64,000 bases of DNA from an uncultured Alphaproteobacteria bacterium (GCA_943788635.1 CALSRA010000007.1:27035-91034), one strand, 5' to 3'; shown: positions 1-26,391, numbered from the stretch's first letter. Notes: generated by a model not told the origin, from the sequence alone. Numbers and translations: made by a program.

Positions 1-1679
1 CCACCATCGTCACCCTGGTGGTCGGTCTGATCTGGACCGCGGCATTCGCGGCCCTGACAATCGGCCATCTGAATCTTATCTCAGTCGCGTTTGCTGTGTT
101 GTTCATTGGTCTGGGCGTGGATTTCAGCATACATTATTGCCTCTATTACCGGGAATGTGCCGCCCGATACACATCCGGCGCCCTTGCCGCCACGGGCGCC
201 GGCATTGGTGGATCCCTCGCGATCAGCGCTATCTGTGCCGCAGCCGGCTTCCTGTCCTTTCTACCAACTGACTACAAGGGACTGGCGGAGTTGGGCCTGA
301 TATCCGGTGGCGGCATGGGTATCGCGTTTTTTCTGAACATGACCCTGATGCCCGCCATCCTGGCCTGTTTTCCCGGCAAGCCCACGCCACAGGCAAGTTC
401 TCCAAACCCCCAGGAACCATTCACACGACGACACTATCGCGCCATTCTTGTTTTGGCGGGCAGCCTCGGATTGGGTGCGGCTGCAGCGATACCCTTTGCG
501 CAATTCGACTTCAATCCCATGAACCTGAAGGACCCCGAAGCCGAATCCGTCGCCACATTCCATGACCTGTCCAACAATCCCCGGAACGGCATTCATGCCA
601 TCGACATTCTCGCCACAGACCTGGAAAAGGCCCGTGCTGACGCGACAAGAATAGAGTCGCTGCCCGATGTCGGCAAAACGGTCAGCCTGTTTAATTTTGT
701 ACCGGCGGATCAGGAAGAAAAACTGACAATCATCGAGGATATCGCCTTTTTTCTTGCCCCCGCTCTGATGACTGTTCCGGCACAAAACGCCAAACCGGCG
801 TCCTTCGCTACCGCAATCAATCAGTTCCAGGTTAATGCGGCGACCTACCTTGCCGATGCCCCCGCCAGCCCCCTAAGCAGCGCCATCGCGCAGTTGAACG
901 ACGCCCTGTTATCCGTTGATGCCACCGATCCCACCCTGCTTGAAGACCTGAATTATCGGCTGACGGGCTATCTTCCGGCCATGCTCGGTAATCTTCGGAA
1001 TGCCTTGCAGGCAACCGCATTTGGTATCGATGAAATTCCGGCGGAAATCCGACGGAACTGGGTAGCGCCCGATGGCCGGGCCCGTGTCCAGGTCTGGCCC
1101 AAAACCCGACCAAAATCAAATGCTGACCTGCAACATTTCGCATCCGCGATGCTGGCCGCTGCTCCCAATGCAGTTGGGACACCCATCACAATTTCCGAAG
1201 CGGGTATCGCCGTCGTATCTGCTTTTCGCGACGCATCCGTCATTGCTCTGATTCTGGTGACCCTGCTTCTGGTCGTCCTGCTGCGCGATATCGCAGGCCT
1301 CGCGTTGATTATGCTGCCACTGGCACTTGCGGCGATCCTCACCGGGGGAACATCCGTTTTGCTGAATCTTCCCTTCAACTTCGCCAATATTATCGTTTTG
1401 CCCCTGCTATTCGGGCTTGGCGTCGCAAGCGGCGTCCATATGGTCATACGCAGCCGGAATATTGGTCAGGATGAGAATGTGATGCTGACCAGCACTCCGC
1501 GCGCCGTATTGTTCAGCGCCCTGACAACAATCGCCTCATTCGGCAGCCTGGCATTGTCAGGGCATCTCGGCATGACCAGCATGGGACAATTGCTGACCAT
1601 CGCTATCGGCTACACGCTGATCTGCATGCTGATTGTTCTGCCCGCCCTGATGGCCTGGCAGGAAAAGCGCGCCCTTTGA
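1..1679 (+). CDS. hpnN: HpnN-like RND/MMPL hopanoid transporter, C-terminal part (5' end upstream of window)
   Basis: Frame is open from the window edge to the stop at 1679. Two multi-TM bundles (GLGVDFSIHYCLYY..., LPLLFGLGVASGVHMV...) flank a ~300-aa soluble loop, which is the MMPL/RND half-repeat layout. It sits at the edge of the hpn cluster. Confidence 0.7.
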   Translation, partial: TIVTLVVGLIWTAAFAALTIGHLNLISVAFAVLFIGLGVDFSIHYCLYYRECAARYTSGALAATGAGIGGSLAISAICAAAGFLSFLPTDYKGLAELGLISGGGMGIAFFLNMTLMPAILACFPGKPTPQASSPNPQEPFTRRHYRAILVLAGSLGLGAAAAIPFAQFDFNPMNLKDPEAESVATFHDLSNNPRNGIHAIDILATDLEKARADATRIESLPDVGKTVSLFNFVPADQEEKLTIIEDIAFFLAPALMTVPAQNAKPASFATAINQFQVNAATYLADAPASPLSSAIAQLNDALLSVDATDPTLLEDLNYRLTGYLPAMLGNLRNALQATAFGIDEIPAEIRRNWVAPDGRARVQVWPKTRPKSNADLQHFASAMLAAAPNAVGTPITISEAGIAVVSAFRDASVIALILVTLLLVVLLRDIAGLALIMLPLALAAILTGGTSVLLNLPFNFANIIVLPLLFGLGVASGVHMVIRSRNIGQDENVMLTSTPRAVLFSALTTIASFGSLALSGHLGMTSMGQLLTIAIGYTLICMLIVLPALMAWQEKRAL

Positions 1680-1829
1680 CAGCGGGTTGGTTATGGACGC
1701 CAAACTATTACATGCGTAAAACGGACACTCGGAACCAAAGTCAATTATCGCAATTTCATAACCGTATCGACACATGCTCGAAACCTGTTCACCTCGCTGG
1801 CCACGGCAAGAATACCTGGGGTCCTGCAC

Positions 1830-2573
1830 ATGAAAGCCGTAATGCTTGCAGCAGGCGTCGGCTCAAGGCTTGAAAAAGAAGCCGGCTTCCCGCCGAAGAC
1901 GCTGTTGCGTTTCGGGGGCAAGTCACTTGTGCAACGCCACGCGGAAATCCTGAAACACCTGGGCTTCGACGAACTTGTCATGGGCGTGGGCTACCAGGCG
2001 AACCTTATCCGCGCTGAAATATCGGCGATTGGCGCTAGTGATTTCATCCGAACCGTGGACTGCCCGGAACACGCCAAAGGCGCCATCTATACACTTTGGG
2101 GGTTACGGGCGGAATTCGCAGGCCCGACCGTCTTCATGGATGGCGACGTTCTGTACGATCACCGGCTTATGGCCCAACTTGTCAATTCCCCCCATGAAAC
2201 ATGTTTCGCAATGGACCGGAATGTCCGCCCGGGCGACGACCCGGTCAAAATCTGTTTCAAGGACAAACAGATTGTCGACTTCCACAAGCAACCGACCACC
2301 CCGCATGACGAGTTCGCCGAATGGATCGGCTTCCTGCGATTGTCTGCAGCGGTCGCGCGACAGCTCGAATCTGCGTTACGGCCCTATATCGAATCCGGCC
2401 GCACCGATGTGATTTACGAGCAGTCGTTTCTGGACATCCTTCGCAATTCACCGGATGGCACGTTTGCCGTAGAGGACATTACCGGCCTGCCATGGACTGA
2501 AATCGACTTCCCCCACGACCTGACATATGCCAGCACGACGATCCTGCCACGGCTAGAACCGCTGCCGGGATGA
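1830..2573 (+). CDS. Sugar-/alcohol-phosphate nucleotidyltransferase (LicC/NTP_transferase-like)
   Basis: 247-aa ORF. N-terminal MLAAGVGSRL matches the GxGxRL nucleotidyltransferase motif, and the size suits a single-domain cytidylyl/uridylyltransferase. Its stop overlaps the next start by 4 nt. Confidence 0.75.
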   Translation: MKAVMLAAGVGSRLEKEAGFPPKTLLRFGGKSLVQRHAEILKHLGFDELVMGVGYQANLIRAEISAIGASDFIRTVDCPEHAKGAIYTLWGLRAEFAGPTVFMDGDVLYDHRLMAQLVNSPHETCFAMDRNVRPGDDPVKICFKDKQIVDFHKQPTTPHDEFAEWIGFLRLSAAVARQLESALRPYIESGRTDVIYEQSFLDILRNSPDGTFAVEDITGLPWTEIDFPHDLTYASTTILPRLEPLPG

Positions 2574-3193
2574 CCGCCAAGTCACCCCCTTGGGACCAGC
2601 GTTTGGCGCGCCCCGTCGCACGGCTTCTGGCAAAGACGCCCGCTACCCCGAACCAGGTCACAACCGTCAGCCTGTTGTTGGGAGTCAGCGGCGGTATCCT
2701 GCTTGGTTTCGGTGAAACAGCAGCCTATTGGGGTGCGCTACTCTACATATTGGCGCAGTTCGTGGACCACATGGATGGTGAACTGGCGCGTATGACCGGG
2801 CAAACCAGCGAGTTTGGTCATTATTACGACCATATTGTTGGCGGCATTTTTGAGTTCGCGCTTTTCTGCGGCATTGGCATTGGCCTGGGGGCGGAAGCAC
2901 TGGGGGGCTGGGCCACCGTTTTGGGATTCGTCGCCGCCATTGCCGTCGGTGTCACCGTGACGGTTCGGATCGGCATTTTCCGTCGCTATGGGCGCAGCGC
3001 CATCGATCAGCCAAGCTGGGGCGGCTTTGAAATCGAGGACATCATGTATCTGGTCGGTCCGATTGCATGGATCGACGGGCTCGACATCTTTTTGTTACTG
3101 GCAAGTATCGGGACGCCAATATTCATGGTGATGACGATCCTGGAATACGTTAAAGGTCCCTCATCAGGAACTGGAGCGGATGAAAAGGCGTGA
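2570..3193 (+). CDS. CDP-alcohol phosphatidyltransferase family membrane protein (divergent signature)
   Basis: 207-aa polytopic ORF with DHMDGELAR-x8-G-x3-D, matching DxxDGxxAR...GxxxD. The position of the fourth Asp is Gly (codon 2840-2842). Overlaps both neighbours by 4 nt. Confidence 0.75.
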   Translation: MTAKSPPWDQRLARPVARLLAKTPATPNQVTTVSLLLGVSGGILLGFGETAAYWGALLYILAQFVDHMDGELARMTGQTSEFGHYYDHIVGGIFEFALFCGIGIGLGAEALGGWATVLGFVAAIAVGVTVTVRIGIFRRYGRSAIDQPSWGGFEIEDIMYLVGPIAWIDGLDIFLLLASIGTPIFMVMTILEYVKGPSSGTGADEKA

Positions 3194-4188
3194 CTGTACT
3201 GGTCACCGGTGCCACGGGATTTGTCGGGTCAGCTGTCACGCGCAGCCTGCTGGCTGATAACCAGCCCGTCCGCGTTCTCGTCCGCCCCGAAAGCGATCGC
3301 GCCAACATCGCCGACCTACCGGTCGGCATTGCCGTCGGCGACCTTCGTGATGCGGCCTCGCTTGTTGCCGCCATGAAAGACTGCCGGGCACTTTACCATG
3401 TCGCTGCCGATTACCGGCTTTGGACGCCAAGGCCCGACGCACTTTACGAAGCCAATGTTACCGGCACCCTGAACCTCATTCGGGCCGCGATGGCGACCGG
3501 GGTCGAACGCATTGTTTATACAAGCAGCGTCGCAACGCTTGGCCTGAATGCGGATGGCAAACCGGCGGACGAATCCACGCCAGTTTCACTCGACGCCATG
3601 ATCGGTCATTACAAACGCTCCAAGTTCCTTGCGGAGGAAGCCGTACAGCGGCTGGTTCGGGAAGAAGGCGCGCCAGTTGTAATCGTCAATCCGTCAACAC
3701 CGATTGGCCCCCGGGATATCAAACCCACCCCGACCGGTCGCATGATTGTCGAGGCCGCCGCCGGCCGGATGCCCGCATTTGTCGATACCGGACTGAACAT
3801 AGTTCATGTCGATGATGTTGCCGCCGGGCACCTGCTGGCATATCGACACGGCCGGATTGGCGAACGCTATGTGCTGGGTGGCGAAAACCAAACCCTCGCG
3901 GAAATTCTGTCTGCAATCGCGACGATAACCGGTCGCCGGCCACCAAAAATCAAATTGCCGCACAACGCCATCGTTCCTGTCGCCGCCGTTGCCGAAGCAT
4001 GGGCGCGCCTGTTCCGTACCGGTGAACCGTTCGTCACGCTGGACGGGATCCGGATGGCCCGCAAACGCATGTTTTTCTCTGCGGCAAAAGCCAAAAAGGA
4101 ACTCGGATATACCGCCAGGCCCTCCGTCGAAGCACTGCAAGACGCCATAGGCTGGTTTGCCCACAATCGCTATCTGGGCACCAAATGA
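3190..4188 (+). CDS. hpnA: Hopanoid-associated NAD-dependent epimerase/dehydratase HpnA
   Basis: 332 aa. Rossmann motif VTGATGFVGS and catalytic YKRSK (YxxxK). Located within the hpn cluster. Confidence 0.8.
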   Translation: MTVLVTGATGFVGSAVTRSLLADNQPVRVLVRPESDRANIADLPVGIAVGDLRDAASLVAAMKDCRALYHVAADYRLWTPRPDALYEANVTGTLNLIRAAMATGVERIVYTSSVATLGLNADGKPADESTPVSLDAMIGHYKRSKFLAEEAVQRLVREEGAPVVIVNPSTPIGPRDIKPTPTGRMIVEAAAGRMPAFVDTGLNIVHVDDVAAGHLLAYRHGRIGERYVLGGENQTLAEILSAIATITGRRPPKIKLPHNAIVPVAAVAEAWARLFRTGEPFVTLDGIRMARKRMFFSAAKAKKELGYTARPSVEALQDAIGWFAHNRYLGTK

Positions 4189-5165
4189 AGTGGGGCATGC
4201 TCCTTAGCCTGGCTGTCGGCGGTGCAGTCTTTACGGCACTCATTGTCTGGTACGGCGCCGCAGATATCCTGGCCGCCGCGACAACCATCGGCTGGGGAAT
4301 TGTCTGGGTCAGTCTCTTCCGGTTTGCCATTCTGATATTCGATACCTTTTCCTGGCAGGTTCTCCTTCCGGTTCCCGGGCGGGAATCTTTGGGGCGACTT
4401 TTCTGGATCCGCTGGATTGCTGATTCCGTGAACGCTTTGCTGCCGGTTGCGCGGGTTGGCGGTGAATTTCTGCGCGCCCTGCTTGTGTATCGTCGTGGCC
4501 TGCCCGGCCCCATTGCCGGCGCGAGCGTCATGGTCGACCTCACCGCCGGTATCTTGACGCAATTTGTTTTTTCCATCGTCGGCGTTATCGCCTTTGCCAT
4601 AATCTCGGACGGTGATGCCGATATTGTAATCAACCTGGCGGCAGGGCTCGCGCTGTTCGCCGCCGGCCTGGCCGGCTTCTACGCCGTTCAGCGGTCTCAG
4701 CCCTTTCTAAAGCTCGCCCGATTGATGGAAAAAATCAGCAATATACAGCGCTGGGCCACGATCACTGGCGGTGCTGCCGCGATGGATGCCGCAATCGTCG
4801 CATTGTACCGGCAACGCCCCGCAATGCTTCTTTGTTGCTTCTGGCGTATCGTTGGGTGGGTTGCCGGCACCGGGGAAGTCTGGCTGATCCTGTATCTGCT
4901 CGGTCACCCGGTAACCCTGATGGAAGCCTTTGTGCTGGAAAGCCTTGGTCAGGCAGCCCGAAGCGCCGGATTCATGATCCCGGGCGGGCTAGGTGTCCAG
5001 GAAGGCGGCCTTGTGCTCGTGGGCAGTCAGCTTGGACTGACGCCGGAAATAGCGCTTGCCCTGTCGCTGGTAAAGCGCGCCCGTGAACTGATTGTCGGGG
5101 TGCCCGGGCTGCTTGCCTGGCAGATCGGCGAGGGGCACGGGTTCTTGAAACGGCACGATACTTGA
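4185..5165 (+). CDS. hpnL: HpnL-like membrane protein (lysyl-PG synthase TM / flippase-like family)
   Basis: 326-aa polytopic protein with a conserved ...LPVARVGGEFLRA... segment typical of the LPG_synthase_TM family. 4-nt overlap with hpnA. Confidence 0.55.
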   Translation: MKWGMLLSLAVGGAVFTALIVWYGAADILAAATTIGWGIVWVSLFRFAILIFDTFSWQVLLPVPGRESLGRLFWIRWIADSVNALLPVARVGGEFLRALLVYRRGLPGPIAGASVMVDLTAGILTQFVFSIVGVIAFAIISDGDADIVINLAAGLALFAAGLAGFYAVQRSQPFLKLARLMEKISNIQRWATITGGAAAMDAAIVALYRQRPAMLLCCFWRIVGWVAGTGEVWLILYLLGHPVTLMEAFVLESLGQAARSAGFMIPGGLGVQEGGLVLVGSQLGLTPEIALALSLVKRARELIVGVPGLLAWQIGEGHGFLKRHDT

Positions 5166-5262
5166 TTCTTGAGCCATAAATTCCACATCCTTGAGGCATA
5201 TCAAGCAACATGCTACGTAGCGAAGAATCGAGAATCGCCCGGCGCGGGCAGAAGGAAATCGA

Positions 5263-6207
5263 ATGGGTAAAAAACCGCTAACGGTTCTGCTCGCGAAGCC
5301 AAGAGGCTTTTGCGCCGGCGTGGTCCGTGCCGTCGATATCGTCGAACGCGCTCTGATAAAGTATGGCAAGCCGGTCTATGTCCGGCATGAAATCGTGCAC
5401 AACAAGCATGTGGTCGAGGCACTGAAGGCCAAGGGCGCCATTTTCGTCGAGGAAGTGGATGAAATTCCCGAAGGCGCGGTGACAATCTTCAGCGCCCACG
5501 GGGTATCCCAAAAAGTCGAGGGCGATGCAATCGGCAGGGATCTTGAGGTAATTGACGCCACCTGTCCGTTGGTGAGCAAGGTCCATAACGAAGCCCAGCG
5601 GTACTCTCGTAACGGTTACGAAATCGTCCTGATCGGCCATCGCGGCCATCCGGAAGTCGAAGGGACCATGGGGCAGGTTCCAGGCATCGTCCATCTGGTA
5701 AGCACCATTGATGACGTCGCACAACTGCAGCCGGAAGACGCCAGCAAGCTGGCCTATGTGACACAGACAACGCTGAGCGTCGATGATACGCGGCACATCA
5801 TCGAAGCGTTGCGGCAGCGCTTTTCAGACATTGTCGGACCGGATGTAAAAGATATCTGCTACGCGACCCAGAACCGGCAGAGTGTCATCCGGGAAATTGC
5901 CACGCAGGCCGATGTCATCCTCGTTATTGGCGCCAATTACAGTTCTAATTCAAATCGCCTGCGGGAAATCGGCGAAGAATCCGGTATACCCAGTTATCTG
6001 CTTGCGGACGAAACGACCCTGGATCCGGCATGGCTTAACGACGCCTCGACAGTCGGCATTACAGCGGGTGCATCCGCACCGGAGGAACTTGTTCAGGGTT
6101 TGATTCGGCGACTTGAAGAATATTTCGAGGTTACCGTCGAGGACCTTGAAACGGTTAAGGAAAACGTCCAGTTCAAGTTACCAAAAGAACTGGCGAACGT
6201 TATCTAG
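5263..6207 (+). CDS. ispH: 4-hydroxy-3-methylbut-2-enyl diphosphate reductase IspH/LytB
   Basis: 314 aa. [20 protein letters not shown]-terminus and conserved Cys-containing segments ([15 protein letters not shown]). RBS AAGGAA lies upstream. Confidence 0.95.
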
Positions 6208-6231
6208 GCGGGGCAGCTAAATTCAACAGGA

Positions 6232-7389
6232 TTGAAAATCGTGGCAGTACCTTTAATTCAGCAATTGCGCGTCGGCGCTTATGTCATAAAGCAACGCCTG
6301 AAAGGCGTTCGGCGTTATCCCCTCGTCCTGATGCTGGAACCGTTATTCCGTTGCAATCTCGCCTGTCCGGGATGCGGCAAGATCGACTATCCCGATGAAA
6401 TCCTGAACCGCCGGCTGAGCGTTGCCGAATGTATCGAAGCGGTCGAGGAATGTGGTGCCCCCATTGTTTCAATTCCTGGTGGCGAGCCGTTGATTCACAA
6501 GGAAATCGGTGAGATTGTAGAGGCATTCGTTGAACGCAAGAAGTTCGTGTACCTGTGCACGAACGCATTGCTGCTTGAAAAGAAACTGCACCTCTTTAAA
6601 CCCAGCCCCTATCTGACATTTTCTGTTCACCTCGACGGACTTGAAGGTGACCATGACCGCGCCGTCAATCAAAAGGGCGTTTTCGCGATCGCGACCCGCG
6701 CCATCGCAAAAGCACGCGACGCCGGTTTCCGTGTCAACGTCAATTGCACCCTGTTCGACAACGCCAAAGCGGACGAAGTAAGCGCATTCTTCGACTACGG
6801 CATGTCGCTTGGTGTTGAAGGCATTACGGTGTCGCCGGGCTACGCCTATGAACGTGCGCCCGACCAGGCACATTTCCTGTCACGCCAGAAAACGAAGCAA
6901 CTCTTCCGGGATGTCTTCAAGCTTGGCAAAGGCAAGAAGTGGCGCTTCAGCCAGTCAACGCTTTTCCTGGATTTCCTGGCCGGCAATCAGGAGTACAAAT
7001 GCACGCCCTGGGGCAACCCGACCCGCAACGTCTTCGGCTGGCAACGACCCTGCTATCTGCTGGGCGAAGGTTATGTGCCAACCTATCGCGAGTTGATGGA
7101 AGAAACCGACTGGGACTTATACGGAACCGGCAAATATGAAAAATGCGCCGAATGCATGGTGCATTGCGGTTACGAAGCGACGGCGGTGATGGACACGATT
7201 GCCCACCCGGTCAAGGCTTTGAAAACATTCGTTTCCGGCCCCGAGCTGGACGGTCCCATGGCGCCGGAAATTTCGCTCGAAAACCAGCGACCCGCGGAAT
7301 ACATCTTCGATTCCAATGTGCAGAAAACGTTGACGCAATTGCATGCCGAAGCCGAACAACGCGCCAAGGAACGCAGCGACGCGGCGTAA
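6232..7389 (+). CDS. hpnH: Hopanoid-associated radical SAM protein HpnH (adenosylhopane synthase)
   Basis: CNLACPGCGK is a CxxxCxxC radical-SAM motif, preceded by YPLVLMLEPLFR. The longest ORF starts at TTG 6232. GTG 6241 (MAVPLIQQLRVG) is an equally plausible start. Confidence 0.9.
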   Translation: MKIVAVPLIQQLRVGAYVIKQRLKGVRRYPLVLMLEPLFRCNLACPGCGKIDYPDEILNRRLSVAECIEAVEECGAPIVSIPGGEPLIHKEIGEIVEAFVERKKFVYLCTNALLLEKKLHLFKPSPYLTFSVHLDGLEGDHDRAVNQKGVFAIATRAIAKARDAGFRVNVNCTLFDNAKADEVSAFFDYGMSLGVEGITVSPGYAYERAPDQAHFLSRQKTKQLFRDVFKLGKGKKWRFSQSTLFLDFLAGNQEYKCTPWGNPTRNVFGWQRPCYLLGEGYVPTYRELMEETDWDLYGTGKYEKCAECMVHCGYEATAVMDTIAHPVKALKTFVSGPELDGPMAPEISLENQRPAEYIFDSNVQKTLTQLHAEAEQRAKERSDAA

Positions 7390-7397
7390 TCGTTCTG

Positions 7398-8096
7398 TCA
7401 GCTGAACCGCGTTTTCAGCAAAATTCGCGCAGTAACCGCAAGGCTGCCTAGCGCGGCGGAACTGTCACGGGCCAGTCCGATAATGCCGGGCAGATCCTGC
7501 GGACGGGTCAGCAGTTTTCCAAGAACGGCAAACGGTCGGCGGTGGCCGTCCGGCCCCATCCCAACCAGTGCCGCTGCCGGGATAGCGCGTGTTGCCGGGT
7601 CCGCGATGGCGCGTATCACCAAAAGCGGAATACCGGCCTTTGCCGCCACCCGTGCGACACCGTGACTTTCCATATCCGCGGCAACAGCGTCTGTTTTATC
7701 CCGCAGCAACGCTTTTCCGGCAGAAGACATCACCGGCGTATCAATTCCGGCAACACCACCGGTTTCAACGCGGCATTCCAACCCGATCCTTTCCGCAAGC
7801 AATTGCGTCCAGGCCGGAGCGGTATCCGTTTGGGTCAGGTCTGCATCCTGCCAAACGAATGTGCCCACCACGATATCACCCGGTGATCGGGACGGGTCGA
7901 GACCACCCGCAATGCCGAAACTGACCAGCACATCGGCGCCATTTTCAAGATGTTGCATGGCGACGCTGGCGGCGCGCTCGGCGCTGCCACCTGCCACCCC
8001 AACAAACGGCCTTTCGGATTCCGGCTCGCTATCGAACACCGCTTCGATCCGGGCGGCTTCAACGACGAGGCCTGTTACGAGTCCCAGGCGGGTCAC
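7398..8096 (-). CDS. hpnG: Hopanoid-associated phosphorylase/nucleosidase HpnG
   Basis: PNP/MTAN-like fold sequence (LVSFGIAGGLDP..., VAADMESHGVARVA). The longest ORF reaches 8159, inside shc. I favour GTG at 8096, which overlaps the shc stop as GTGA. Confidence 0.75.
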   Translation of the reverse strand: MTRLGLVTGLVVEAARIEAVFDSEPESERPFVGVAGGSAERAASVAMQHLENGADVLVSFGIAGGLDPSRSPGDIVVGTFVWQDADLTQTDTAPAWTQLLAERIGLECRVETGGVAGIDTPVMSSAGKALLRDKTDAVAADMESHGVARVAAKAGIPLLVIRAIADPATRAIPAAALVGMGPDGHRRPFAVLGKLLTRPQDLPGIIGLARDSSAALGSLAVTARILLKTRFS

Positions 8097-10153
8097 ATGC
8101 CGTGCGGCACTGTATTGGCGTTGCCGACCTGAAGGTTTCTGTAGCGCGCCAGCGCCCACAGCGGAAAATAGGCGCTATAGCCGTGGTAACGCAGGTAAAA
8201 TACCCGCGGGAAGCCGACTGCGGTGTACCAGGCTTCGGTCCAGCGGGCACCGTCACGTTCGGCCGCAACCAGATACGCGACACCACGTTTCACCGCATCC
8301 GAATCGACCTCTCCCGCCGCCATCAGACCCAGCAACGCCCAGGCAGTTTGCGACGGGGTGCTTTCCTTTTCCATGTCACGGGTTTCGGTCCAGTAGGTCG
8401 CACCGTCTTCCCCCCATCCACCATCGCTGCGCTGCCGGCTCTTCAACCAGTCCACGGCCTTGGTTATATGCGGGGCCGTCATGTCTTCGGACGCTGCGTT
8501 GAACGCGCACAGGACCGACCAGGTCCCGTAAATATAATTTGTGCCCCAGCGGCCGAACCAGGATCCATCGGGCTGCTGGGTTTCCCGCAGGTATGCGAGG
8601 CCGCGCTCGACAGCAACCCTGCCAGATTCCTCATCGATCTGCGCCAGCATACTCACGCAACGTGCGGTCACATCTTCCGTCGGCGGATCAAGCAACGCAC
8701 CGTGATCCGCGAAGGGAATATGATTCAGATACGTGTTTGTATTCTCCGCATCAAATGACCCCCAGCCGCCATTTTGCGACTGCATGCCGACGATCCATTC
8801 CGCCGCACGATCCATCGACTCTTTCAAAGCCGGGTCTTCCATACGATGCAACGCCATCGCGACAACCGCAGAATCGTCCACATCGGGATAGTGATCGTTC
8901 CCGTACTGAAATGCCCAGCCACCGGGCCTTAGCCCCGGACGGTTGTCAGCCCAGTCGCCAACGACATCCAGCACCTGCCGGTCTGCCAACCATTTTGCAG
9001 CCTGCTGGAGCTTCTCACTATCCTGCGGCACACCGGCCTCAAGCATCGCCTGCGTTGCCAGGCCCGTATCCCACACCGGCGACACGCAGGGCTGGCAATA
9101 CCCGCGATCCTCTTCAAGAACCAAAAGCCGCCGGATCGCCGCCTTTGCGGTGACCAGGTCAGGATGGTCCTTCGCAAACCCCAACCGGTCGAATGCCATG
9201 ACCGTATTGGCCATAGCGGGGAAAATTCCACCCAGACCATCCTCGCCGTTGAGCCTTTCCTGAACAAATTCAACGGCTTTGCGGAATGCTCGTTGCCGGC
9301 GATTCTTCGGATACTGCCGTTCAACGACGCGCAAAGCCTTGTCCAGGCCGATAAAGAGGGTTCCCCAGAGTGAACCCGTGGGATTACGCATGTAATGCTT
9401 CACGTCATTCGCCGGCATCACAAAAAGCTCGTCTATATGGACCCCGCGCGGATTTCGGGCGCGCGGCTTCAGCGCCATCAAAATCAGCAGGGGGACGAGA
9501 ACGGTACGTGACCAGTAGGAAATTTTTGAAATGTGGAACGGAAACCAGCGCGGCAAAAGCATGATTTCCACCGGCATAACCGGCACCGCGCGCCAGGGCA
9601 GCTGGTCGAACAGCGCCAGGGCAATACGCGTAAATACATTGCAGGTCGCAGCACCGCCACGCGCCAATATCGCTTCGCGGGCGCGCAGCATATGCGGCGC
9701 ATCTATGGGGTCGCCTGCAAGCTTCAGCGCGTAATACGCCTTCACGCTCGCGCTGATATCAAACGCCCCCTTGTGAAACAGGGGCCACCCGCCGTGATCG
9801 CCCTGAATTTCGCGCAGATAAACGGCCAGTTTACGCTCTATCCCATCGTCGATTTCATCAAGGAAATGTTCCAGCATGATGTATTCGGATGGAATCGTCG
9901 CATCAGCTTCGAGTTCGAAAACCCAATGGCCATCATCTTTTTGCAAAGCACCAAGCGCATCCGTCGCATCATCGACGACGGTATTCACTAAATCCAGAAG
10001 CCGGTCATCGCTTCCTATGGGCCCGCCGCCGACATACGCGTCAGCGTTGCTGACTTCCCTGGCAGTATCCATTATCGCTACGCTATTCTTCCCATTCACC
10101 GCATAAGTACACCGATTCGACGCTTCATGCTCCAACAATCGGAATATTGTCAA
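8093..10153 (-). CDS. shc: Squalene-hopene cyclase
   Basis: 686 aa. DxDD motif (PDVDDSAVV) and multiple QW repeats (QxxDGSWxGxWG, QRSDGGWGE, QNGGWG). TTG start at 10153 is preceded by GAGG. An alternative ATG lies at 10072. Confidence 0.95.
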   Translation of the reverse strand: MTIFRLLEHEASNRCTYAVNGKNSVAIMDTAREVSNADAYVGGGPIGSDDRLLDLVNTVVDDATDALGALQKDDGHWVFELEADATIPSEYIMLEHFLDEIDDGIERKLAVYLREIQGDHGGWPLFHKGAFDISASVKAYYALKLAGDPIDAPHMLRAREAILARGGAATCNVFTRIALALFDQLPWRAVPVMPVEIMLLPRWFPFHISKISYWSRTVLVPLLILMALKPRARNPRGVHIDELFVMPANDVKHYMRNPTGSLWGTLFIGLDKALRVVERQYPKNRRQRAFRKAVEFVQERLNGEDGLGGIFPAMANTVMAFDRLGFAKDHPDLVTAKAAIRRLLVLEEDRGYCQPCVSPVWDTGLATQAMLEAGVPQDSEKLQQAAKWLADRQVLDVVGDWADNRPGLRPGGWAFQYGNDHYPDVDDSAVVAMALHRMEDPALKESMDRAAEWIVGMQSQNGGWGSFDAENTNTYLNHIPFADHGALLDPPTEDVTARCVSMLAQIDEESGRVAVERGLAYLRETQQPDGSWFGRWGTNYIYGTWSVLCAFNAASEDMTAPHITKAVDWLKSRQRSDGGWGEDGATYWTETRDMEKESTPSQTAWALLGLMAAGEVDSDAVKRGVAYLVAAERDGARWTEAWYTAVGFPRVFYLRYHGYSAYFPLWALARYRNLQVGNANTVPHGM

Positions 10154-10200
10154 TACGCGCCTCTATGACGGTGCAAGGGGCGAATTCACCCTGACGCTTA

Positions 10201-11451
10201 TCAGGATTCCAATACAGCATCCGCCGCAGCGTGACCCGACCGAACAGCGCTTTCAATCGTCGCCGGCAAGCCGGTATCGGTCCAGTCACCGGCGAGGCAA
10301 AGGTTCGCCAAAGACGATTGTGTCTTCGCCCGCAGAAGCATCGCTGCCGGTGTCTGCGCAAAAGTCGCGCGCCGCTCCTTCACCACCCGAAAGGGCGGCA
10401 CGGGCGCGCTGGGCAATTCGAGTGCGCGGGACACATCTGTCCAAACGCGGTCGCCAATCAATTCCGCAGCCTGGTCCGCCAGGTCATCGGCAGCGCTTAC
10501 CGTAACGGACGCAATATCGTGTCGAACGAAAAGCCATTGAGCGACCCCACCGACAAGACCGAGCAACGAAACATCTCCATGCGCCATAACAGGCGATGGC
10601 AGCCTGTAATGCACATTGACAATGGCGTGGCTTCCTTCGGGCACAGATACGCCGGGCAGCACGGATTTAAGGCCCTGCGGCGGGAGCGCCAGAATAACCG
10701 CATCGGTTGGCTGAACGACAACGCCCGTCTCCGTGAACTCCAGGTGAGTCACCAGATTATCGCGGGTTTGCACTGTCTTCAGACGATGCGAAAATCGGAT
10801 ATCCGCCCCCAGCGCAGCGAGCCGTTCCAGCGCCGGGTCAACCAGGCTGGCAGAAAGCCCCTTTCGCGCAACGAGCGGCCGGCACGATGCCGCGCCATGG
10901 GCGAAGGTTTCCGTCAGCACCTGCCATAGGGGCTGTGCCGCAGCCTGGGCTGCCGGCGTGTTCAGCGCCGCAACGGCAAGCGGCTCCCAGAACGTTTCAT
11001 ACAGTGAACCGCTCCCGCCCAGCACTTCCTCTACGGTCGCGGTCGGTGGTGCGGATCGAAGCCGCAACGCCGCAAGAAAATCCCGTGCCCGTGAGGCAGG
11101 TGGCCGCCGTCCCGCACACAATATCCACCACGGAATCGGCCCGGCATTTGGTCTTACCGTCCACCGCGCCCCCGAATCGAGGTCAACAAACGGAAATTCG
11201 GCAACAGCAGGACCGGTGAGCGTATCCCGCGCCCCGATTTCATCAAGATATGCCATGGCGGAACGGTTTCCGCTCATCATCAGATGATTGCCGTTGTCGA
11301 TAACCGCATCGAGAACACTGTCGTGGAAAGACCGGCAGCGCCCGCCGGCATGACCACTTGATTCATACACCGTCACACGCCGTCCCGCCGCAGCCAGACT
11401 GACCGCGGCGGCAAGACCCGCAAGACCGGCACCAACAATATGCACACGCAT
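10201..11451 (-). CDS. hpnE: Hydroxysqualene dehydroxylase HpnE (FAD-dependent amine-oxidase family)
   Basis: 416 aa. N-terminal FAD motif IVGAGLAGLAAA. Lies between hpnD and shc. Confidence 0.8.
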   Translation of the reverse strand: MRVHIVGAGLAGLAAAVSLAAAGRRVTVYESSGHAGGRCRSFHDSVLDAVIDNGNHLMMSGNRSAMAYLDEIGARDTLTGPAVAEFPFVDLDSGARWTVRPNAGPIPWWILCAGRRPPASRARDFLAALRLRSAPPTATVEEVLGGSGSLYETFWEPLAVAALNTPAAQAAAQPLWQVLTETFAHGAASCRPLVARKGLSASLVDPALERLAALGADIRFSHRLKTVQTRDNLVTHLEFTETGVVVQPTDAVILALPPQGLKSVLPGVSVPEGSHAIVNVHYRLPSPVMAHGDVSLLGLVGGVAQWLFVRHDIASVTVSAADDLADQAAELIGDRVWTDVSRALELPSAPVPPFRVVKERRATFAQTPAAMLLRAKTQSSLANLCLAGDWTDTGLPATIESAVRSGHAAADAVLES

Positions 11452-11461
11452 CTCTGCGGCC

Positions 11462-12367
11462 CTAGAACAGACTGTACCGCAGGGCGAGGCGGAGCTTCAC
11501 CCAGCGCGACAGATGAACCGGTGCGTCGAGCTGCTTCCAGCCCCGCTGCCGAAGCAGTTCGAAAATTTCCCGATAAACCGCCATCATCATTATCGCCGGT
11601 CGCATTTTGCGCTGGTCAAGCTGCCCCATCAGGTCACTGCTGACAGCGAATGCTTCCTTGGCCAGATCGGCAAGATCGACACACACCCGCGCAACTGCGG
11701 GATCAGCCAACAAGGCATCGGGCGTGGTTGCCACAACGCCATGCTTGTCCAGCAGTTCTCTTGGCAGATAGAGCCGCCCCCACAACGCGTCTTCGTGAAC
11801 GTCACGCAGAATATTGGTGAGCTGCAGCGCATTTCCCAGGCTGATCGCCAGATCCGCTGCCGGCGCCCGCGTTTCACCAAACGCATGGATTGACAGCATG
11901 CCCACCGCACCAGCCACCCGCCGGCAATACAGAAAGAGATCCGCATAACTGGGACCCCAGATATCAGCGCGGGCATCCATTTCCATACCATCGATGACGG
12001 TCAGAAATTCAGCTTTAGGCAGATCGAATGCATGAACGGGTTCCAGCAGGGCCTGGGCTGTCAGCAACCGAGGCCGCCCTGCATAAAGGTTCTCGATTTC
12101 CTGCCGCCACGCATCCAGACGTTTCAGCTTTTCCGGACCAGTCCCTGGTTCATCCGCGATATCATCGACTTCCCGGCAGAATGCATAGATCGCGTACATG
12201 GCTGCACGCCGGTCCGCCGGCAAGACACGCATCCCCAACCGAAAAGACGACCCTGATCGTTCGACAACCTGGCGCGCATGCTCAATTGCGGCAGCCTCAT
12301 CGAACGGTGCAGAACCGTCGCTTCCCGGGTTCGGTTGTTTTTCCGCGGTTGAAAGCAAATTTGCCAT
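11462..12367 (-). CDS. hpnD: Presqualene diphosphate synthase HpnD (squalene/phytoene synthase family)
   Basis: YAFCREVDDIADE and NILRDVHEDAL Asp-rich motifs. ATG at 12367 (MANLL...) is preferred. The longest ORF extends to TTG 12433. Confidence 0.85.
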   Translation of the reverse strand: MANLLSTAEKQPNPGSDGSAPFDEAAAIEHARQVVERSGSSFRLGMRVLPADRRAAMYAIYAFCREVDDIADEPGTGPEKLKRLDAWRQEIENLYAGRPRLLTAQALLEPVHAFDLPKAEFLTVIDGMEMDARADIWGPSYADLFLYCRRVAGAVGMLSIHAFGETRAPAADLAISLGNALQLTNILRDVHEDALWGRLYLPRELLDKHGVVATTPDALLADPAVARVCVDLADLAKEAFAVSSDLMGQLDQRKMRPAIMMMAVYREIFELLRQRGWKQLDAPVHLSRWVKLRLALRYSLF

Positions 12368-12448
12368 CGCCTGTTCGATCTCAAAAATATGCGCCGTGTT
12401 CGCGGATAGGCTCCCAGCCAACGCGGCGCGCAACCTTGTATAGCAGAA

Positions 12449-13297
12449 TCAGCCGGACCGGCGAACCACATCCCAGACAGCGCCGACGCCACAGCAAAGA
12501 TATTGCGGACGCCGCAGGACGACCCGTTCCGCCAGCGGATCCCGGTCGCGTAATTCCAGAATCAGGCGGTTCGCAATCCGGACAATCATTGCCGCTTCCA
12601 ACGCGAAACGCCGGTTCTGCAACTGCCCCGCCAGGGGTTGCGCAACGCGCATGAGGTCTGCAGTCAGATCAAGGCAGCGATCAATGACCCGCCGCAAACC
12701 GCTATCAGTCGTCACGCCATCCAGCGCCGCCGTCGTAATACCCGCTTCGGCCATCCAGTCACCGGGCAAATAGACCCGGTCCATTGTCCGAAAATCATCC
12801 TGGCAATCCTGCAGATGGTTGATGACCTGCAGCGCCGCACAAAGCGCATCGGACGCCGGATACGCGTGCCTGGATTCACCGTGCAGGTCTATCAGGTAAC
12901 GGCCAACAGGGGCTGCCGATAATCGGCAATACCCCATCAGCTCATCCCAATCGGCATAACGGGACTGCACCGCATCCTGCTTGAAGGCGTTGATCAGGTC
13001 GATGCAATGCTGCGGATCGACACCCGTTGCGGCCATGCTGTCACGTATCGCATTTGCTTTGGCATATGCAGGGTCCGCGCCACCGGGTTCCCGCAAGGCG
13101 TGCTCGAATCCGGAAAGCCGGTCAATTTTTTGCGCCGCGGGCAGTTCCGGATTATCCGCGATATCGTCTATTGCCCTGGCATAGGCGTAAAATACAGCGA
13201 CATGCGGCCGCAAGGCCGCCGGAAGCAGCCAGGACCCCACCGGGAAATTTTCGTCACCCGCCTGTTTCCCGGACGGTGTTTCTACTGATTCAGACAA
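12449..13297 (-). CDS. hpnC: Hydroxysqualene synthase HpnC (squalene/phytoene synthase family)
   Basis: YAYARAIDDIADN and INHLQDCQDD motifs. The longest ORF (to 13369) overlaps hpnB by 49 nt. TTG at 13297 has GGGAGGA 5 nt upstream and lies just after the hpnB stop. Confidence 0.85.
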   Translation of the reverse strand: MSESVETPSGKQAGDENFPVGSWLLPAALRPHVAVFYAYARAIDDIADNPELPAAQKIDRLSGFEHALREPGGADPAYAKANAIRDSMAATGVDPQHCIDLINAFKQDAVQSRYADWDELMGYCRLSAAPVGRYLIDLHGESRHAYPASDALCAALQVINHLQDCQDDFRTMDRVYLPGDWMAEAGITTAALDGVTTDSGLRRVIDRCLDLTADLMRVAQPLAGQLQNRRFALEAAMIVRIANRLILELRDRDPLAERVVLRRPQYLCCGVGAVWDVVRRSG

Positions 13298-13320
13298 AAG
13301 TTCCTCCCGAAAGCGGCAGC

Positions 13321-14487
13321 TTATTGCTGATAGACACGGCCTTTCCAGCCACCCCCAACGCCCCGCCAATGGCGAACAGCGGAAGAAATCGTCATTGCCG
13401 TATAAAGCATACCAGCGAGAGGCAGGAACACAGCCGTATACAGCGGTCGATCATACAATCGCAATGTCGGAATATAGGCGACACACATCAGTATATAGGT
13501 GGCTAACCCCGCCAGGACGGTTATGGGCGCCAACCAGCCAAAGGCCAGAACCACCAGCAACGGAACGCCATACACAAGCGCCATACCCATAATGCATCCC
13601 ATCAGCAGCCAGGGCGAGTAGCGCAATTGCGTATAGGCGCTTCTGGCAACCATGTTCCAGATTCCACTGAATCCGCCATAAGGACGTGTGGAACGGGTCT
13701 TCGCATCCAGACTCAGCGAAAGACGGCCACCCGCATCTGCGAGACTTCGGGCCAGGGCACAATCGTCAATCAATGCGCCCTTGATCGCATCCATTCCCCC
13801 TGACCGGTGCAGCGCGGAACGGCGCACCAGCATACAGCCCCCGGCCGCTGCCGCCGTATCCCGGGTATCATCATTGACCCGGCTGAACGGATAGAGCATC
13901 TGAAAAAAGAAAACGAAGGGCGGTATCAAAAACCGTTCCCAGAAGCCCTTCGTCATCAACATCACCATGATCGATACCAGGTCTTTGCCTTCGGTTTCAG
14001 CGGTGTGAACCAGGCGCCGCAGGTTCGAAGGGGCATGTTCAATATCGGCATCGCTGAACAGAATATATCGCGCCTGCGGGGCGATACTGTCTGCGTGCGC
14101 CACCCCCTGCGCCATCGCCCAGACCTTGCCTGTCCAGCCCGGCGCAAGGGGGGCACCGTCCACCACGGCCAGGCGATCGGCATGCCCGGCCTCCTCGGCC
14201 GCCGCGCGGGCAATCGCCGCCGTGCCATCATTGCTGTTGTCATCAACCAGAACGATTGAAACCGGGCGCGAATAGTCCTGCTGCTGCAACGACAAAACCG
14301 TACGGCTAATGACATCGGCCTCATTGCGTGCCGGGATGACCACAAGAACATCCGGCCATTCCGGTAGATCGGGATTTGGCAATTCGTTGGCCGACAGGGT
14401 GCTCCGCCAGAAACCGCCATGAAAGAAGACAAGATAGACCCATGCGGCACATGACATCACGGCCAGAATTGCAGCGACGTAAATCAA
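13321..14487 (-). CDS. hpnB: Hopene-associated family-2 glycosyltransferase HpnB
   Basis: 388 aa. GT2 motifs VVIPARNE, VDDNSNDGT and FSDADIEH, plus C-terminal TM helices. TTG start lies 3 nt after the upstream stop. Confidence 0.8.
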   Translation of the reverse strand: MIYVAAILAVMSCAAWVYLVFFHGGFWRSTLSANELPNPDLPEWPDVLVVIPARNEADVISRTVLSLQQQDYSRPVSIVLVDDNSNDGTAAIARAAAEEAGHADRLAVVDGAPLAPGWTGKVWAMAQGVAHADSIAPQARYILFSDADIEHAPSNLRRLVHTAETEGKDLVSIMVMLMTKGFWERFLIPPFVFFFQMLYPFSRVNDDTRDTAAAAGGCMLVRRSALHRSGGMDAIKGALIDDCALARSLADAGGRLSLSLDAKTRSTRPYGGFSGIWNMVARSAYTQLRYSPWLLMGCIMGMALVYGVPLLVVLAFGWLAPITVLAGLATYILMCVAYIPTLRLYDRPLYTAVFLPLAGMLYTAMTISSAVRHWRGVGGGWKGRVYQQ

Positions 14488-14490
14488 GGG

Positions 14491-15243
14491 TCACACGCGG
14501 AATACATACTCTTTGCCCGTCTCCCGCTCCACATCAGGCGGGAAACTCTTGCGCTTGTCCGCATAATACTGTGCACGGTGGTCGCCGTCGGCACGCCGGT
14601 TGTAGGTCACGTACAGGACACGACGGGGCGATTGCGTAAGATTTGGCGCTGACCGATGGGGCGCATAGGAATCAAACAGAACCACATCACCGGGCTGAGT
14701 CGGACAGGAGTGGTATTTGATCTCGCTGCCTTCGCCGTCATCCAGCGGTTGCCACTCGTTGCCGATCAGCCCCCTGTCATGCCATCCGGCTGCCATTTCC
14801 AGGCAACCATTCGTCGTCGTCGCCGCATCGATACTGACCAGTGCCGTAATGTGAAAATCCGAATAGACGTTCCAGCCTGCCTGCGCATCCTGATGCGCCT
14901 TGAAGCCGTCGCCGCCCGGCATCTTCATATTGATCTTTTCCTTGAAAAGAACCGCGGCTTCGCCAAGCAATTGTGACACTGCATCAATCATGGCGCCGGT
15001 CCGGATCAGATCGTCAAAACCGGCATGGAACGGACAGAAATTTTCGACCCGGGACACGACACGGTCCGCACCAGCAATCAGGCTGTCTTCATAATAGACC
15101 ATGTGTTCACCCGGCAACTCGGGCCAACCGAGGATTTCTTCCGTCCATGTGGCAATTTTGCCGACACTCGCCACGTCGTACATTGCCGGGACGATGACAT
15201 AACCGTCTCGCCGAAAAGACCGAATCTGTTCTTCTGTCAGCAT
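14491..15243 (-). CDS. Phytanoyl-CoA dioxygenase (PhyH)-family Fe(II)/2-oxoglutarate oxygenase
   Basis: 250 aa. LTEEQIRSFRRDGYVIV N-terminus, HxD triad element (AHQD) and distal His (YAPHRS). It is the first gene of the minus-strand hpn operon. Confidence 0.75.
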   Translation of the reverse strand: MLTEEQIRSFRRDGYVIVPAMYDVASVGKIATWTEEILGWPELPGEHMVYYEDSLIAGADRVVSRVENFCPFHAGFDDLIRTGAMIDAVSQLLGEAAVLFKEKINMKMPGGDGFKAHQDAQAGWNVYSDFHITALVSIDAATTTNGCLEMAAGWHDRGLIGNEWQPLDDGEGSEIKYHSCPTQPGDVVLFDSYAPHRSAPNLTQSPRRVLYVTYNRRADGDHRAQYYADKRKSFPPDVERETGKEYVFRV

Positions 15244-20830: not shown

Positions 20831-20920
20831 GGATCGGCGCTGCGACCTCCGCCGTGCACGACTGAATTCCCTTATTGGGACACCTTAGCGCAGCATCCTT
20901 CGAGGGTAAACGTTTAGAAA

Positions 20921-21016
20921 TTGATCATTTTTGATCGATATCATTCAAATAAATATTATCCCCTGTTTAATTCTGACCTTTTGATTACTCTGTTAAGCAT
21001 GCAATAGTAGGATCAA
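20921..21016. promoter_or_regulatory. AT-rich divergent control region with phased TTGAT(C/T) repeats
   Basis: TTGATC at 20921 and 20931, TTGATT at 20981, and inverted GATCAA at 21011, directly before ATG 21017. The three direct copies are spaced by multiples of 10 bp. The region is much more AT-rich than its flanks. Confidence 0.4.
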
Positions 21017-22270: not shown

Positions 22271-22274
22271 CACC

Positions 22275-24637: not shown

Positions 24638-25230
24638 CGTTGCTTGCCGTTATCCGCCACGGCCCCACCCACTGGAATGAAACCGGAATTGTACAGGGGC
24701 GCAGTGATATCCCACTCAGCGAGACTGGCCGCAGCCTTGTCGGTAGCTGGCAGGTACCGGAAGCATTCACGGAATACGAATGGGTGACGAGTCCGTTGGT
24801 CCGAGCCGCCGAAACCGCAAAGATCCTGAGCGGACAGCCGCAACCAACCGACCACCGGCTCGTTGAAATGGACTGGTCTGCGTGGGAAGGCATGAAACTG
24901 CCGGATCTGCGCGCGCAATTGGGCAACCTGATGAAAGCCTGGGAGGCCGAAGGATTGGACTTCCGGGCACCCGGCGGGGAAAGCCCCCGTGACGTGCAGG
25001 ATCGTTTAAGGCCGTTTCTGGCAGAACGCGCCGCGGTCGGCACACCGACAGTTGTGGTTTGCCACAAGGGTGTCATCCGGGCGCTGTACGCAATGGCGGT
25101 ATCATGGGACATGACCGACAAACCGCCGGAGAAGCTGCAGGATAATTGTACCCATGTTTTCCGACTGGAACCGGATGGCTCGCCGCAACCCCATCAACTC
25201 AACCTGCCGATGACGACCACTGAAGAATGA
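24634..25230 (+). CDS. Histidine phosphatase family protein (phosphoglycerate-mutase-like)
   Basis: 198 aa. Catalytic RHG motif (AVIRHGPTHWN). ATGA overlaps at both ends. Confidence 0.85.
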   Translation: MTLLAVIRHGPTHWNETGIVQGRSDIPLSETGRSLVGSWQVPEAFTEYEWVTSPLVRAAETAKILSGQPQPTDHRLVEMDWSAWEGMKLPDLRAQLGNLMKAWEAEGLDFRAPGGESPRDVQDRLRPFLAERAAVGTPTVVVCHKGVIRALYAMAVSWDMTDKPPEKLQDNCTHVFRLEPDGSPQPHQLNLPMTTTEE

Positions 25231-26384: not shown

Positions 26385-26391
26385 GCAGCGC

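Follow-up and report, generated by a model that had tools for sequence, protein, structure and literature searches.

Conserved pairing of a cytidylyltransferase and a CDP-alcohol phosphotransferase in bacterial hopanoid loci suggests a candidate head-group module

Introduction

What are a soluble nucleotidyltransferase and a membrane-embedded phosphotransferase doing in the middle of a hopanoid locus? The question is raised by a stretch of 64,000 nucleotides from an uncultured alphaproteobacterium (GCA_943788635.1, CALSRA010000007.1:27035-91034), hereafter the window, in which two genes outside the named hpn set lie between hpnN and hpnA. They are here called NT, for the nucleotidyltransferase, and PT, for the phosphotransferase. 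An earlier note on this DNA assigned NT to the LicC-like nucleotidyltransferases and PT to the CDP-alcohol phosphatidyltransferase family, and proposed that together they build a phosphodiester-linked hopanoid; the open reading frames (ORFs) and Pfam matches obtained here agree with those families and with the extent and position of both genes. We propose, with a probability of roughly 0.55, that NT and PT form a hopanoid-dedicated head-group module of the Kennedy type.

The roles of HpnA, HpnB and HpnL are listed as unknown in recent reviews and surveys, and one survey of cultured Alphaproteobacteria reported no further candidate genes near hopanoid clusters. In Table S8 of a preprint from the Belin laboratory, 'IPR000462 CDP-alcohol phosphatidyltransferase' is entered 1409 times within 20 ORFs of 3662 shc loci, and a MobA-like NTP transferase 336 times, its fused form twice (bioRxiv 10.1101/2025.07.29.667474). 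The main text of that preprint is silent on both entries, and the former is absent from the examined Acetobacter and Burkholderia rows of the table. Genome mining in the Acetobacteraceae has placed shc beside a phosphoenolpyruvate (PEP) mutase gene in Belnapia rosea CGMCC 1.10758 and in several type strains of Roseomonas, from which an 'undiscovered terpene-phosphonate' was guessed (PMC8776678). R. aerilata DSM 19363, R. nepalensis S9 and R. oryzae KCTC 42542 are among the cultured strains for which this linkage is reported. The enzyme families and the logic of activating a head group before transferring it are thus already known; new are a dedicated subfamily of PT proteins, the fusions that it forms, its location within hopanoid loci and the product predicted from them.

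Results

In the window, NT, PT, hpnA and hpnL are chained by stop/start overlaps of 4 nt, reading ATGA, GTGA and ATGA in turn, as the earlier note had observed. The wider distribution of this arrangement was followed by scanning one genome per GTDB species with motifs from the PT alignment. A relative of PT is encoded in 290 species, and the best 79 distinct loci (L001 and so on) were fetched with up to 10 kb on each side of PT; the hopanoid proteins of the window were mapped onto them by tblastn and by blastp of the called ORFs. At least one of hpnN, hpnA, hpnH, hpnG and shc was present in 60 of the 79 loci and at least two in 48, while hpnA and NT lay no more than 600 bp from PT in 55 and 47 loci, respectively. 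The commonest order was MlaC< hpnN> NT> PT> hpnA> (hpnL>) (PT2>) ispH> hpnH> <hpnG <shc <hpnE <hpnD, and the order was identical in two further long-read genome assemblies reached via the NT protein. Two or more PT paralogues occurred in 26 of the 79 loci, with a maximum of three in a single hopanoid locus, and some gammaproteobacterial loci had the order hpnN-PT-hpnA-PT with no NT close by. The loci stem from Alphaproteobacteria, Gammaproteobacteria, Nitrospinae (L018), Nitrospira (L052) and Desulfobacteraceae (L042), with PT identity down to 41%. This association far exceeds chance: genes scattered at random over a genome a few Mb in size would, by our estimate, show it in less than 1% of cases. 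The positional conservation that the earlier note had wished to see examined is therefore evident across phyla, and the pattern it had named as contrary to its proposal, pairs residing mainly in genomes without shc, is not that of the loci visible here. No glycerolipid biosynthesis gene recurred in the related PT loci, and seven recurrent ORF clusters in them (c2, c14, c20, c22, c39, c51 and c54) were discarded as spurious antisense ORFs.

A separate PT context, with no core hopanoid gene within reach, was seen in L028, L033, L038, L043, L060, L069, L072 and L075, which come from Binatia, delta- and gammaproteobacterial, Sphingomonadales and other metagenome-assembled genomes (MAGs). Several of these eight loci harboured an hpnL-like gene and six a Sulfotransfer_3 gene, and they may serve a different modified lipid.

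Gene fusions provide a second line of evidence. The over-long top matches (far above 210 amino acids) of an exhaustive PT profile search were checked by Pfam and NCBIfam scans, and the proteins named here (P0508 and so on) are cluster representatives. Six of them join PT to HpnL, in both domain orders: HpnL-PT in P0508, P0511 and P0484, and PT-HpnL in P0390, P0506 and P0499. The HpnL domain exceeds the TIGR03476 cutoff in P0508, P0390 and P0511. P0508 is a genuine fusion, as the identical protein occurs in four contigs that were assembled separately. PT is furthermore fused to NT in P0420, which lends weight to the coupling of the two enzymes assumed in the earlier note, to a 2-oxoglutarate oxygenase in P0415, to a second PT in P0382 (a tandem judged from two matched stretches) and to a complete HpnN in P0446 (TIGR03480, 806 bits; cutoff 752). 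P0446 and P0390 each derive from one short contig and could be assembly or frameshift artefacts. The PT-HpnL fusions copy the design of MprF, a lipid synthase joined to a flippase-type domain, which argues that the product of PT is a membrane lipid handled by HpnL. Translocation by HpnL had been suggested in the earlier note, and the occurrence of these fusions in both orders, one of them in four contigs, speaks in its favour.

The distribution of hpnL and hpnA beyond the PT loci is also informative. In Acetobacter, hpnL-hpnA-hpnB-hpnC and further genes stand together without PT. HpnL is thus linked to hopanoids even where PT is missing, and its cargo is plausibly a hopanoid derivative. By the same token, the adjacency of hpnA and PT may be partly historical, because hpnL, hpnA and hpnB keep together there without PT. 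Both hpnA and hpnG also occur widely in hopanoid loci with neither NT nor PT.

NT scored 40.2 bits against Pfam NTP_transf_3 (cutoff 27). When a profile of 60 NT relatives was compared with solved structures, it matched the PntC domain of Treponema denticola Tde1415 (6pd1) over its full length with an E-value of 4e-21, LicC with 6e-12 and inositol-1-phosphate cytidylyltransferase (IPCT) with 1e-9. The AlphaFold (AF2) model of NT (predicted local distance difference test, pLDDT, 93.6) likewise had PntC-AEPT (6pd2) as its top Foldseek match, with a template-modelling score (TM) of 0.84 and an E-value of 1.6e-17, followed by IPCT and LicC. Invariant in the family are G9, R13, K23, D104, D106, W222, E224 and D226. 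NT has the fold, the N-terminal GxGxR...K motif, the DxD metal site and the amine-contacting acidic residues of LicC/PntC-type enzymes. In Tde-PntC the substrate amine is contacted by Glu104 and Glu196, the counterparts of Asp105 and Asp192 in LicC (Rice et al. 2019, PMC6697681). By pairwise alignment, Glu104 and Glu196 correspond to D104 and E197 of NT, both of which are conserved across the family, E197 to at least 90% in set A2 and invariably in set A4. Public pipelines label the relatives 'phosphocholine cytidylyltransferase family' or 'choline kinase'. All inositol-family NCBIfam scores fell far below their cutoffs, including that of the top NCBIfam match, the IPCT/DIPPS model NF041135 (53.5 bits; cutoff 580). 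By sequence and modelled structure, NT is most likely a LicC/PntC-type enzyme for a small amine-bearing phosphate or phosphonate. An enzyme counts operationally as PntC when its gene is associated with that of PEP mutase in the genome (Rice et al. 2019, PMC6697681), and no PEP mutase was found near NT, neither in the 64 kb of the window nor within 10 kb in L001. The window is also devoid of lic genes, and NT can therefore not be assigned as PntC or LicC proper.

PT matched Pfam CDP-OH_P_transf (PF01066) with 53.5 bits (cutoff 22), and its AF2 model (pLDDT 94), a juxtamembrane helix followed by six long helices, has the fold of the superfamily. The best Foldseek match was AF2299 (4o6n; TM 0.78), and PgsA1 of M. 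tuberculosis, IPCT-DIPPS and the eukaryotic CHPT1 and CEPT1 (target lengths 364-387 residues) were also recovered. The PF01066 signature D1xxD2GxxAR...GxxxD3xxxD4, spanning transmembrane helices 2 and 3, is incomplete in PT, in which Gly91 (codon 2840-2842) occupies the D4 position. The remaining residues, D66, D69, G70, A73, R74, G83 and D87, do not vary in any of the 109 aligned ORFs of the family, whereas the D4 position in 110 ORFs is held by G (54), D (30), A (11), V (5), M (5), S (3) or T (2). Residues specific to the PT family are Asp157, which is invariant, and His67, Glu154, Glu156 and Tyr160, which are nearly so. According to the alignment and the AF2 model, the family motif GFE-x-ED-xx-Y lies in the loop between transmembrane helices 4 and 5 and at the beginning of helix 5. 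In structures of phosphatidylinositol-phosphate (PIP) synthases we take this region to line a basic pocket for a phosphorylated acceptor such as inositol-phosphate. The acidic candidate pocket of PT would by analogy suit a cationic head group or a neutral polyol rather than inositol-phosphate or glycerol-phosphate. The scores of PT were three- to fourteen-fold under the cutoffs of the models for PIP synthase (NF045883, 57.3 bits; cutoff 170), archaetidylinositol-phosphate synthase (NF040950, 59.7 bits; cutoff 180) and IPCT/DIPPS (NF041135, 42.4 bits; cutoff 580), and the first two matched in the N-terminal half only.

The PT family is small, with 182 clusters (50% identity) at an E-value of 1e-30 among 1.84 billion representatives, and its paralogue clades follow gene position. 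PT1, which includes the PT of the window and has Gln147, sits between NT and hpnA; PT2a (His147) sits between hpnA and ispH; PT2b (Tyr147) immediately follows hpnL.

Clustering of the unassigned ORFs in the related loci revealed a recurrent set beside hpnM/hpnN, made up of a 554-residue PEP mutase fused to an NTP_transf_3 domain (PepM-NT), a thiamine-diphosphate enzyme of 381 residues and a class-V aminotransferase of 382 residues. From its size and position the second is read as phosphonopyruvate decarboxylase (Ppd), and the third as the transaminase (AEPT) of 2-aminoethylphosphonate (AEP). Judged from sequence, the three would constitute the canonical AEP pathway with a PntC-type activating domain added. 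The PepM-NT fusion or the decarboxylase was present in 8 of the 79 PT loci, most of which had all three genes, and the cassette was located inside or beside the hopanoid locus in ten loci (L036, L037, L044, L045, L047, L053, L062, L068, L086 and L087). In the gammaproteobacterial L053, the genes hpnN> PT> hpnA> PT> NT> PepM-NT> Ppd> AEPT> follow one another on a single strand, before hpnH and hpnB. In a reverse check, the PepM-NT fusion was taken as the starting point instead of PT and three long contigs were examined. Two of the three, L086 and L087, were hopanoid loci with PT; the other, L088, had no hopanoid genes. L086 reads MlaC> PepM-NT> adjoining <hpnN <NT <PT <hpnA ... <PT, and L087 reads hpnB, hpnD, hpnE, shc, hpnG, <hpnH, <ispH, hpnA>, NT>, <PhyH, PepM-NT>, Ppd>, PT>, with a 4-nt overlap of Ppd and PT. 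This Ppd-coupled PT belongs to a subclade that retains the fourth Asp. At least part of the PT family is accordingly operonic with AEP synthesis inside hopanoid loci. The PEP-mutase association in the related loci rests on a separate, PepM-fused NT domain, and no AEP cassette was within reach in the window's own clade (L001, L005-L013 and L026). Roseomonas was not among the best 120 matches of the PepM-NT search. A gene of the fatty-acid-desaturase family was noted between hpnA and the second PT in L086 (2489-3568, minus strand).

The earlier note had modelled its pathway on IPCT/DIPPS and on phosphatidylinositol-phosphate synthase. The idea of a phosphodiester-linked hopanoid gains from the conserved position and the fusions, but this analogy is not the best one, with NT closest to PntC and LicC, relatives that carry a phosphonate cassette and inositol-family scores far under the cutoffs. 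Inositol chemistry of either kind was rejected as the best analogy on the low scores, on PntC as the closest structure to NT, on the acidic motif of PT and on the absence of an inositol-phosphate synthase gene from the window.

The features of the window are given in Table 1. Full-length hpnN (856 residues) is present in L001, which is from the same genome, and the gene order is identical in four metagenome contigs of this genome, on which MlaA-like and MlaC-like genes (hpnS and hpnM in the naming of a recent preprint) lie immediately upstream of hpnN. No phosphonate cassette, second PT or second NT was found anywhere in the 64 kb, and a promoter and terminator scan of 1500-7600 yielded fewer hits than shuffled sequence and was hence uninformative.

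Table 1. Genes of the hopanoid locus, with positions counted within the 64-kb window
Feature	Position	Strand	Description
hpnN, resistance-nodulation-division (RND) hopanoid transporter	18..1679	+	3' 553 codons only (5' end beyond window edge); TIGR03480 E 5e-188, profile positions 304-860
NT, LicC/PntC-like CTP:phospho(no)-alcohol cytidylyltransferase (predicted)	1830..2573	+	247 aa; Pfam NTP_transf_3
PT, six-helix CDP-alcohol phosphotransferase (predicted), clade PT1 (Gln147)	2570..3193	+	207 aa; Pfam CDP-OH_P_transf
hpnA, hopanoid-associated extended short-chain dehydrogenase/reductase (SDR; 'sugar epimerase')	3190..4188	+	332 aa; TIGR03466 507 bits (cutoff 368)
hpnL, LPG_synthase_TM (MprF flippase-like) membrane protein	4185..5165	+	326 aa; TIGR03476 321 bits (cutoff 196), Pfam PF03706
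ispH and hpnH (adenosylhopane synthase)	5263..7389	+	NCBIfam NF002188 and TIGR03470
hpnG, shc, hpnE, hpnD, hpnC, hpnB, PhyH-family dioxygenase	7398..15243	-	divergent arm of hopanoid locus

On the divergent arm, the longest ORF of hpnG (7398-8159, minus strand) overlaps shc by 67 nt. The gene calls of L001, an identical contig, start hpnG at window position 8096 and leave a 4-nt overlap with shc, by which the minus-strand hopanoid genes also appear to be translationally coupled. Immediately downstream, hpnB is followed by the PhyH-family 2-oxoglutarate dioxygenase gene (14491-15243, minus strand). Ten related hopanoid loci contain a member of this family, which separates NT from PepM-NT in L087 and adjoins PT in L047. 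The enzyme could hydroxylate the hopanoid side chain or, as PhnY does, AEP. A few kb past the hopanoid locus, 18173-27168 encodes an 885-residue ATP-binding cassette (ABC) exporter, two GT28-like and two GT4 glycosyltransferases and a histidine phosphatase, which may form a glycolipid or surface-glycan pathway.

Discussion

In the pathway that we propose, a small phosphate or phosphonate bearing an amine would be activated by soluble NT at the expense of cytidine triphosphate (CTP); phosphoethanolamine, phosphocholine and AEP are the candidates. Integral-membrane PT would then move the phospho(no)-head group from cytidine monophosphate (CMP) to a hydroxyl of the extended side chain of a hopanoid, bacteriohopanetetrol or a precursor of it, at the cytoplasmic face of the inner membrane, and the product would be a zwitterionic hopanoid phospho(no)diester. 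The MprF-flippase-like HpnL would shift it to the outer leaflet, and HpnN, together with the MlaC-like and MlaA-like proteins encoded upstream, would carry it to the outer membrane. For PT, phosphotransfer from a CDP-alcohol with release of CMP is the putative reaction, by kinship with its superfamily, and would have to proceed in the window's enzyme with the fourth Asp missing. A small CMP-activated donor is indicated by the adjacency and overlap of NT and PT, by the PT-NT fusion and by the overlap of Ppd and PT in L087. Gene context and fusions point to a hopanoid, and not to diacylglycerol, as the acceptor. The more specific statement, that a widespread set of uncultured marine and soil bacteria among the Alpha- and Gammaproteobacteria, Nitrospinae and others makes hopanoids with a phosphoethanolamine-, phosphocholine- or AEP-type head group through a PT subfamily with a relocated catalytic base, HpnL flipping and HpnN exporting them, stands in our estimation a little short of even odds.

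Several observations weigh against a head-group module dedicated to hopanoids. As the earlier note had supposed of characterised phosphodiester-linked bacteriohopanepolyols, the literature that could be searched yielded no report of a phosphorus-containing bacteriohopanepolyol or a phosphodiester-linked hopanoid, despite wide surveys of bacteriohopanepolyols. All PT carriers seen here are uncultured, the 79 loci, cluster members and long contigs alike being MAGs or metagenomes. No hpnN, hpnA, hpnH, hpnG or shc was present in the fetched stretch of 19 of the 79 loci, which include Kiloniellales with a flavin adenine dinucleotide (FAD) oxidase and a tryptophan dioxygenase, an hpnL-like gene with a sulfotransferase and a few other contexts; the HpnL-PT fusion P0508 is likewise outside any hopanoid locus. 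The synteny may in part have been inherited by descent and not kept by selection. As a source of substrate for NT, neither PEP mutase nor choline/ethanolamine kinase nor inositol-phosphate synthase is encoded in the 64 kb. Finally, the signature of PT is short of its fourth Asp, which has been proposed as the catalytic base of DIPPS and PIPS; since 80 of 110 family members have another residue there, the chemistry of PT may differ or its activity be altered.

The chief rival to a hopanoid-specific module keeps the chemistry and changes the acceptor. In an ordinary glycerolipid or sphingolipid Kennedy pathway, NT would make CDP-choline, CDP-ethanolamine or CMP-AEP, PT would use diacylglycerol or ceramide, and the position in the hopanoid locus would follow only from co-regulation or co-export of outer-membrane lipids. 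Diacylglycerol-using CDP-alcohol phosphotransferases are well established, with CHPT1 and CEPT1 among the structural matches of PT, AEP head groups on glycerolipids and sphingolipids are known phosphonolipids, and neither the 19 loci nor P0508 is located within a hopanoid locus. This would leave the tight and often overlap-coupled placement in hopanoid operons across phyla as a by-product of regulation or export, and it would account poorly for up to three PT paralogues per hopanoid locus, for the fusion of PT to the full HpnN hopanoid transporter and for the lack of any recurring glycerolipid biosynthesis gene in PT loci; we regard it as unlikely, if still the strongest competitor. A phosphatidyl-hopanoid, made by PT from CDP-diacylglycerol and a hopanoid polyol much as PgsA and PIP synthase act on small alcohols, with NT serving another step, has a slim chance. 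The best NCBIfam matches and high structural matches of PT, to PIP synthases and archaetidylinositol-phosphate synthase, would agree with it, as would the gammaproteobacterial hpnN-PT-hpnA-PT loci with no nearby NT, but NT adjoins PT in 47 of the 79 loci and is overlap-coupled to it in the window, a PT-NT fusion exists, and PT is overlap-coupled to the decarboxylase in L087.

Slimmer still is the chance that the hopanoid is itself the activated partner, ribosylhopane-1-phosphate from HpnG being converted by NT to CDP-ribosylhopane for further processing by HpnA, an SDR of the type acting on nucleoside-diphosphate (NDP) sugars, and PT. HpnG is a homologue of purine-nucleoside phosphorylases, and its hypothetical phosphorylated product has never been observed, according to a 2026 review. 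The fold of HpnA is that of NDP-sugar epimerases/dehydratases, and NT is weakly similar to sugar-1-phosphate nucleotidylyltransferases; the closest relatives of NT, however, take small aminoalkyl phosph(on)ates as substrates, and the residues that contact the amine have been conserved. To our knowledge, no soluble enzyme of the NT fold acts on a triterpenoid lipid, and hpnA and hpnG are common where NT and PT are missing. Hardly credible, lastly, is a PT that is catalytically dead or repurposed, or a pair whose product is a soluble phosphodiester, comparable to the di-myo-inositol phosphate of IPCT/DIPPS. Gly91 in place of D4 and IPCT/DIPPS as the top NCBIfam match for NT could be read in this way, yet the other seven signature residues and the extra motif are conserved, which indicates selection on the active site of PT; the scores are about one tenth of the IPCT/DIPPS cutoff, and the joining of PT to a flippase-like domain, and to an RND exporter of lipids, speaks for a product that is a lipid.

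If the head-group module is real, it would produce a class of lipid so far undescribed and predicts specific new bacteriohopanepolyol masses. For bacteriohopanetetrol the calculated [M+H]+ values are 654.4857 with AEP, 670.4806 with phosphoethanolamine (or hydroxy-AEP) and 712.5276 with phosphocholine. It also offers a concrete and testable function for HpnL, the flipping of a head-group-modified hopanoid, which would be the first function assigned to this protein. Should the link to phosphonates prove correct, some of the AEP that bacteria make would finish up on hopanoids, and hopanoid biomarkers would be tied to the marine phosphonate pool, with a bearing on the reading of biomarkers and on marine organophosphorus. 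For the mechanism of the superfamily at large, it is of interest that the PT subfamily retains seven of the eight signature residues but lacks the proposed catalytic base.

The nearest parallels are the Pnt and Lic pathways (Rice et al. 2019, PMC6697681), with which the proposed module shares the logic of CMP-activating a head group and transferring it to a surface molecule. NT shares with PntC and LicC their fold and their conserved metal- and amine-contact residues, and related PT loci contain the same canonical PepM-Ppd-AEPT cassette, theirs with the PepM-fused NT domain. The window genes differ in their location in a hopanoid locus, in having no PEP mutase or lic genes, so that NT lacks the genomic context of PntC and LicC, and in a transfer enzyme that is a CDP-alcohol phosphotransferase and not of the LicD type. 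The linkage of shc and PEP mutase in Roseomonas and Belnapia (PMC8776678) was described with no transfer enzyme, cytidylyltransferase or mechanism named, and the window locus itself has no PEP mutase. CHPT1 and CEPT1 of the Kennedy pathway belong to the superfamily of PT and move a CDP-activated amino-alcohol to the hydroxyl of a membrane lipid. They are larger (364-387 residues), whereas PT is minimal, with six helices, and resembles AF2299, PIPS and DIPPS most closely; it differs further in the missing D4 and in the proposed hopanoid-polyol acceptor. In IPCT/DIPPS of Archaeoglobus (4mnd) and in AF2299, the best structural match of PT (TM 0.78), a CDP-alcohol phosphotransferase comes with a cytidylyltransferase partner, at times as a fusion, as in NT and PT, which are set apart by scores of 42-54 bits against a cutoff of 580, by the acidic candidate acceptor pocket and by a product expected to be a lipid and not soluble. 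MprF, finally, combines lysyl-phosphatidylglycerol synthase with a flippase domain; HpnL shares its flippase-type membrane domain and the PT-HpnL fusions its synthase-plus-flippase architecture, but the synthase part of MprF is an aminoacyl-tRNA-dependent transferase where PT-HpnL has a phosphotransferase, and the cargo differs.

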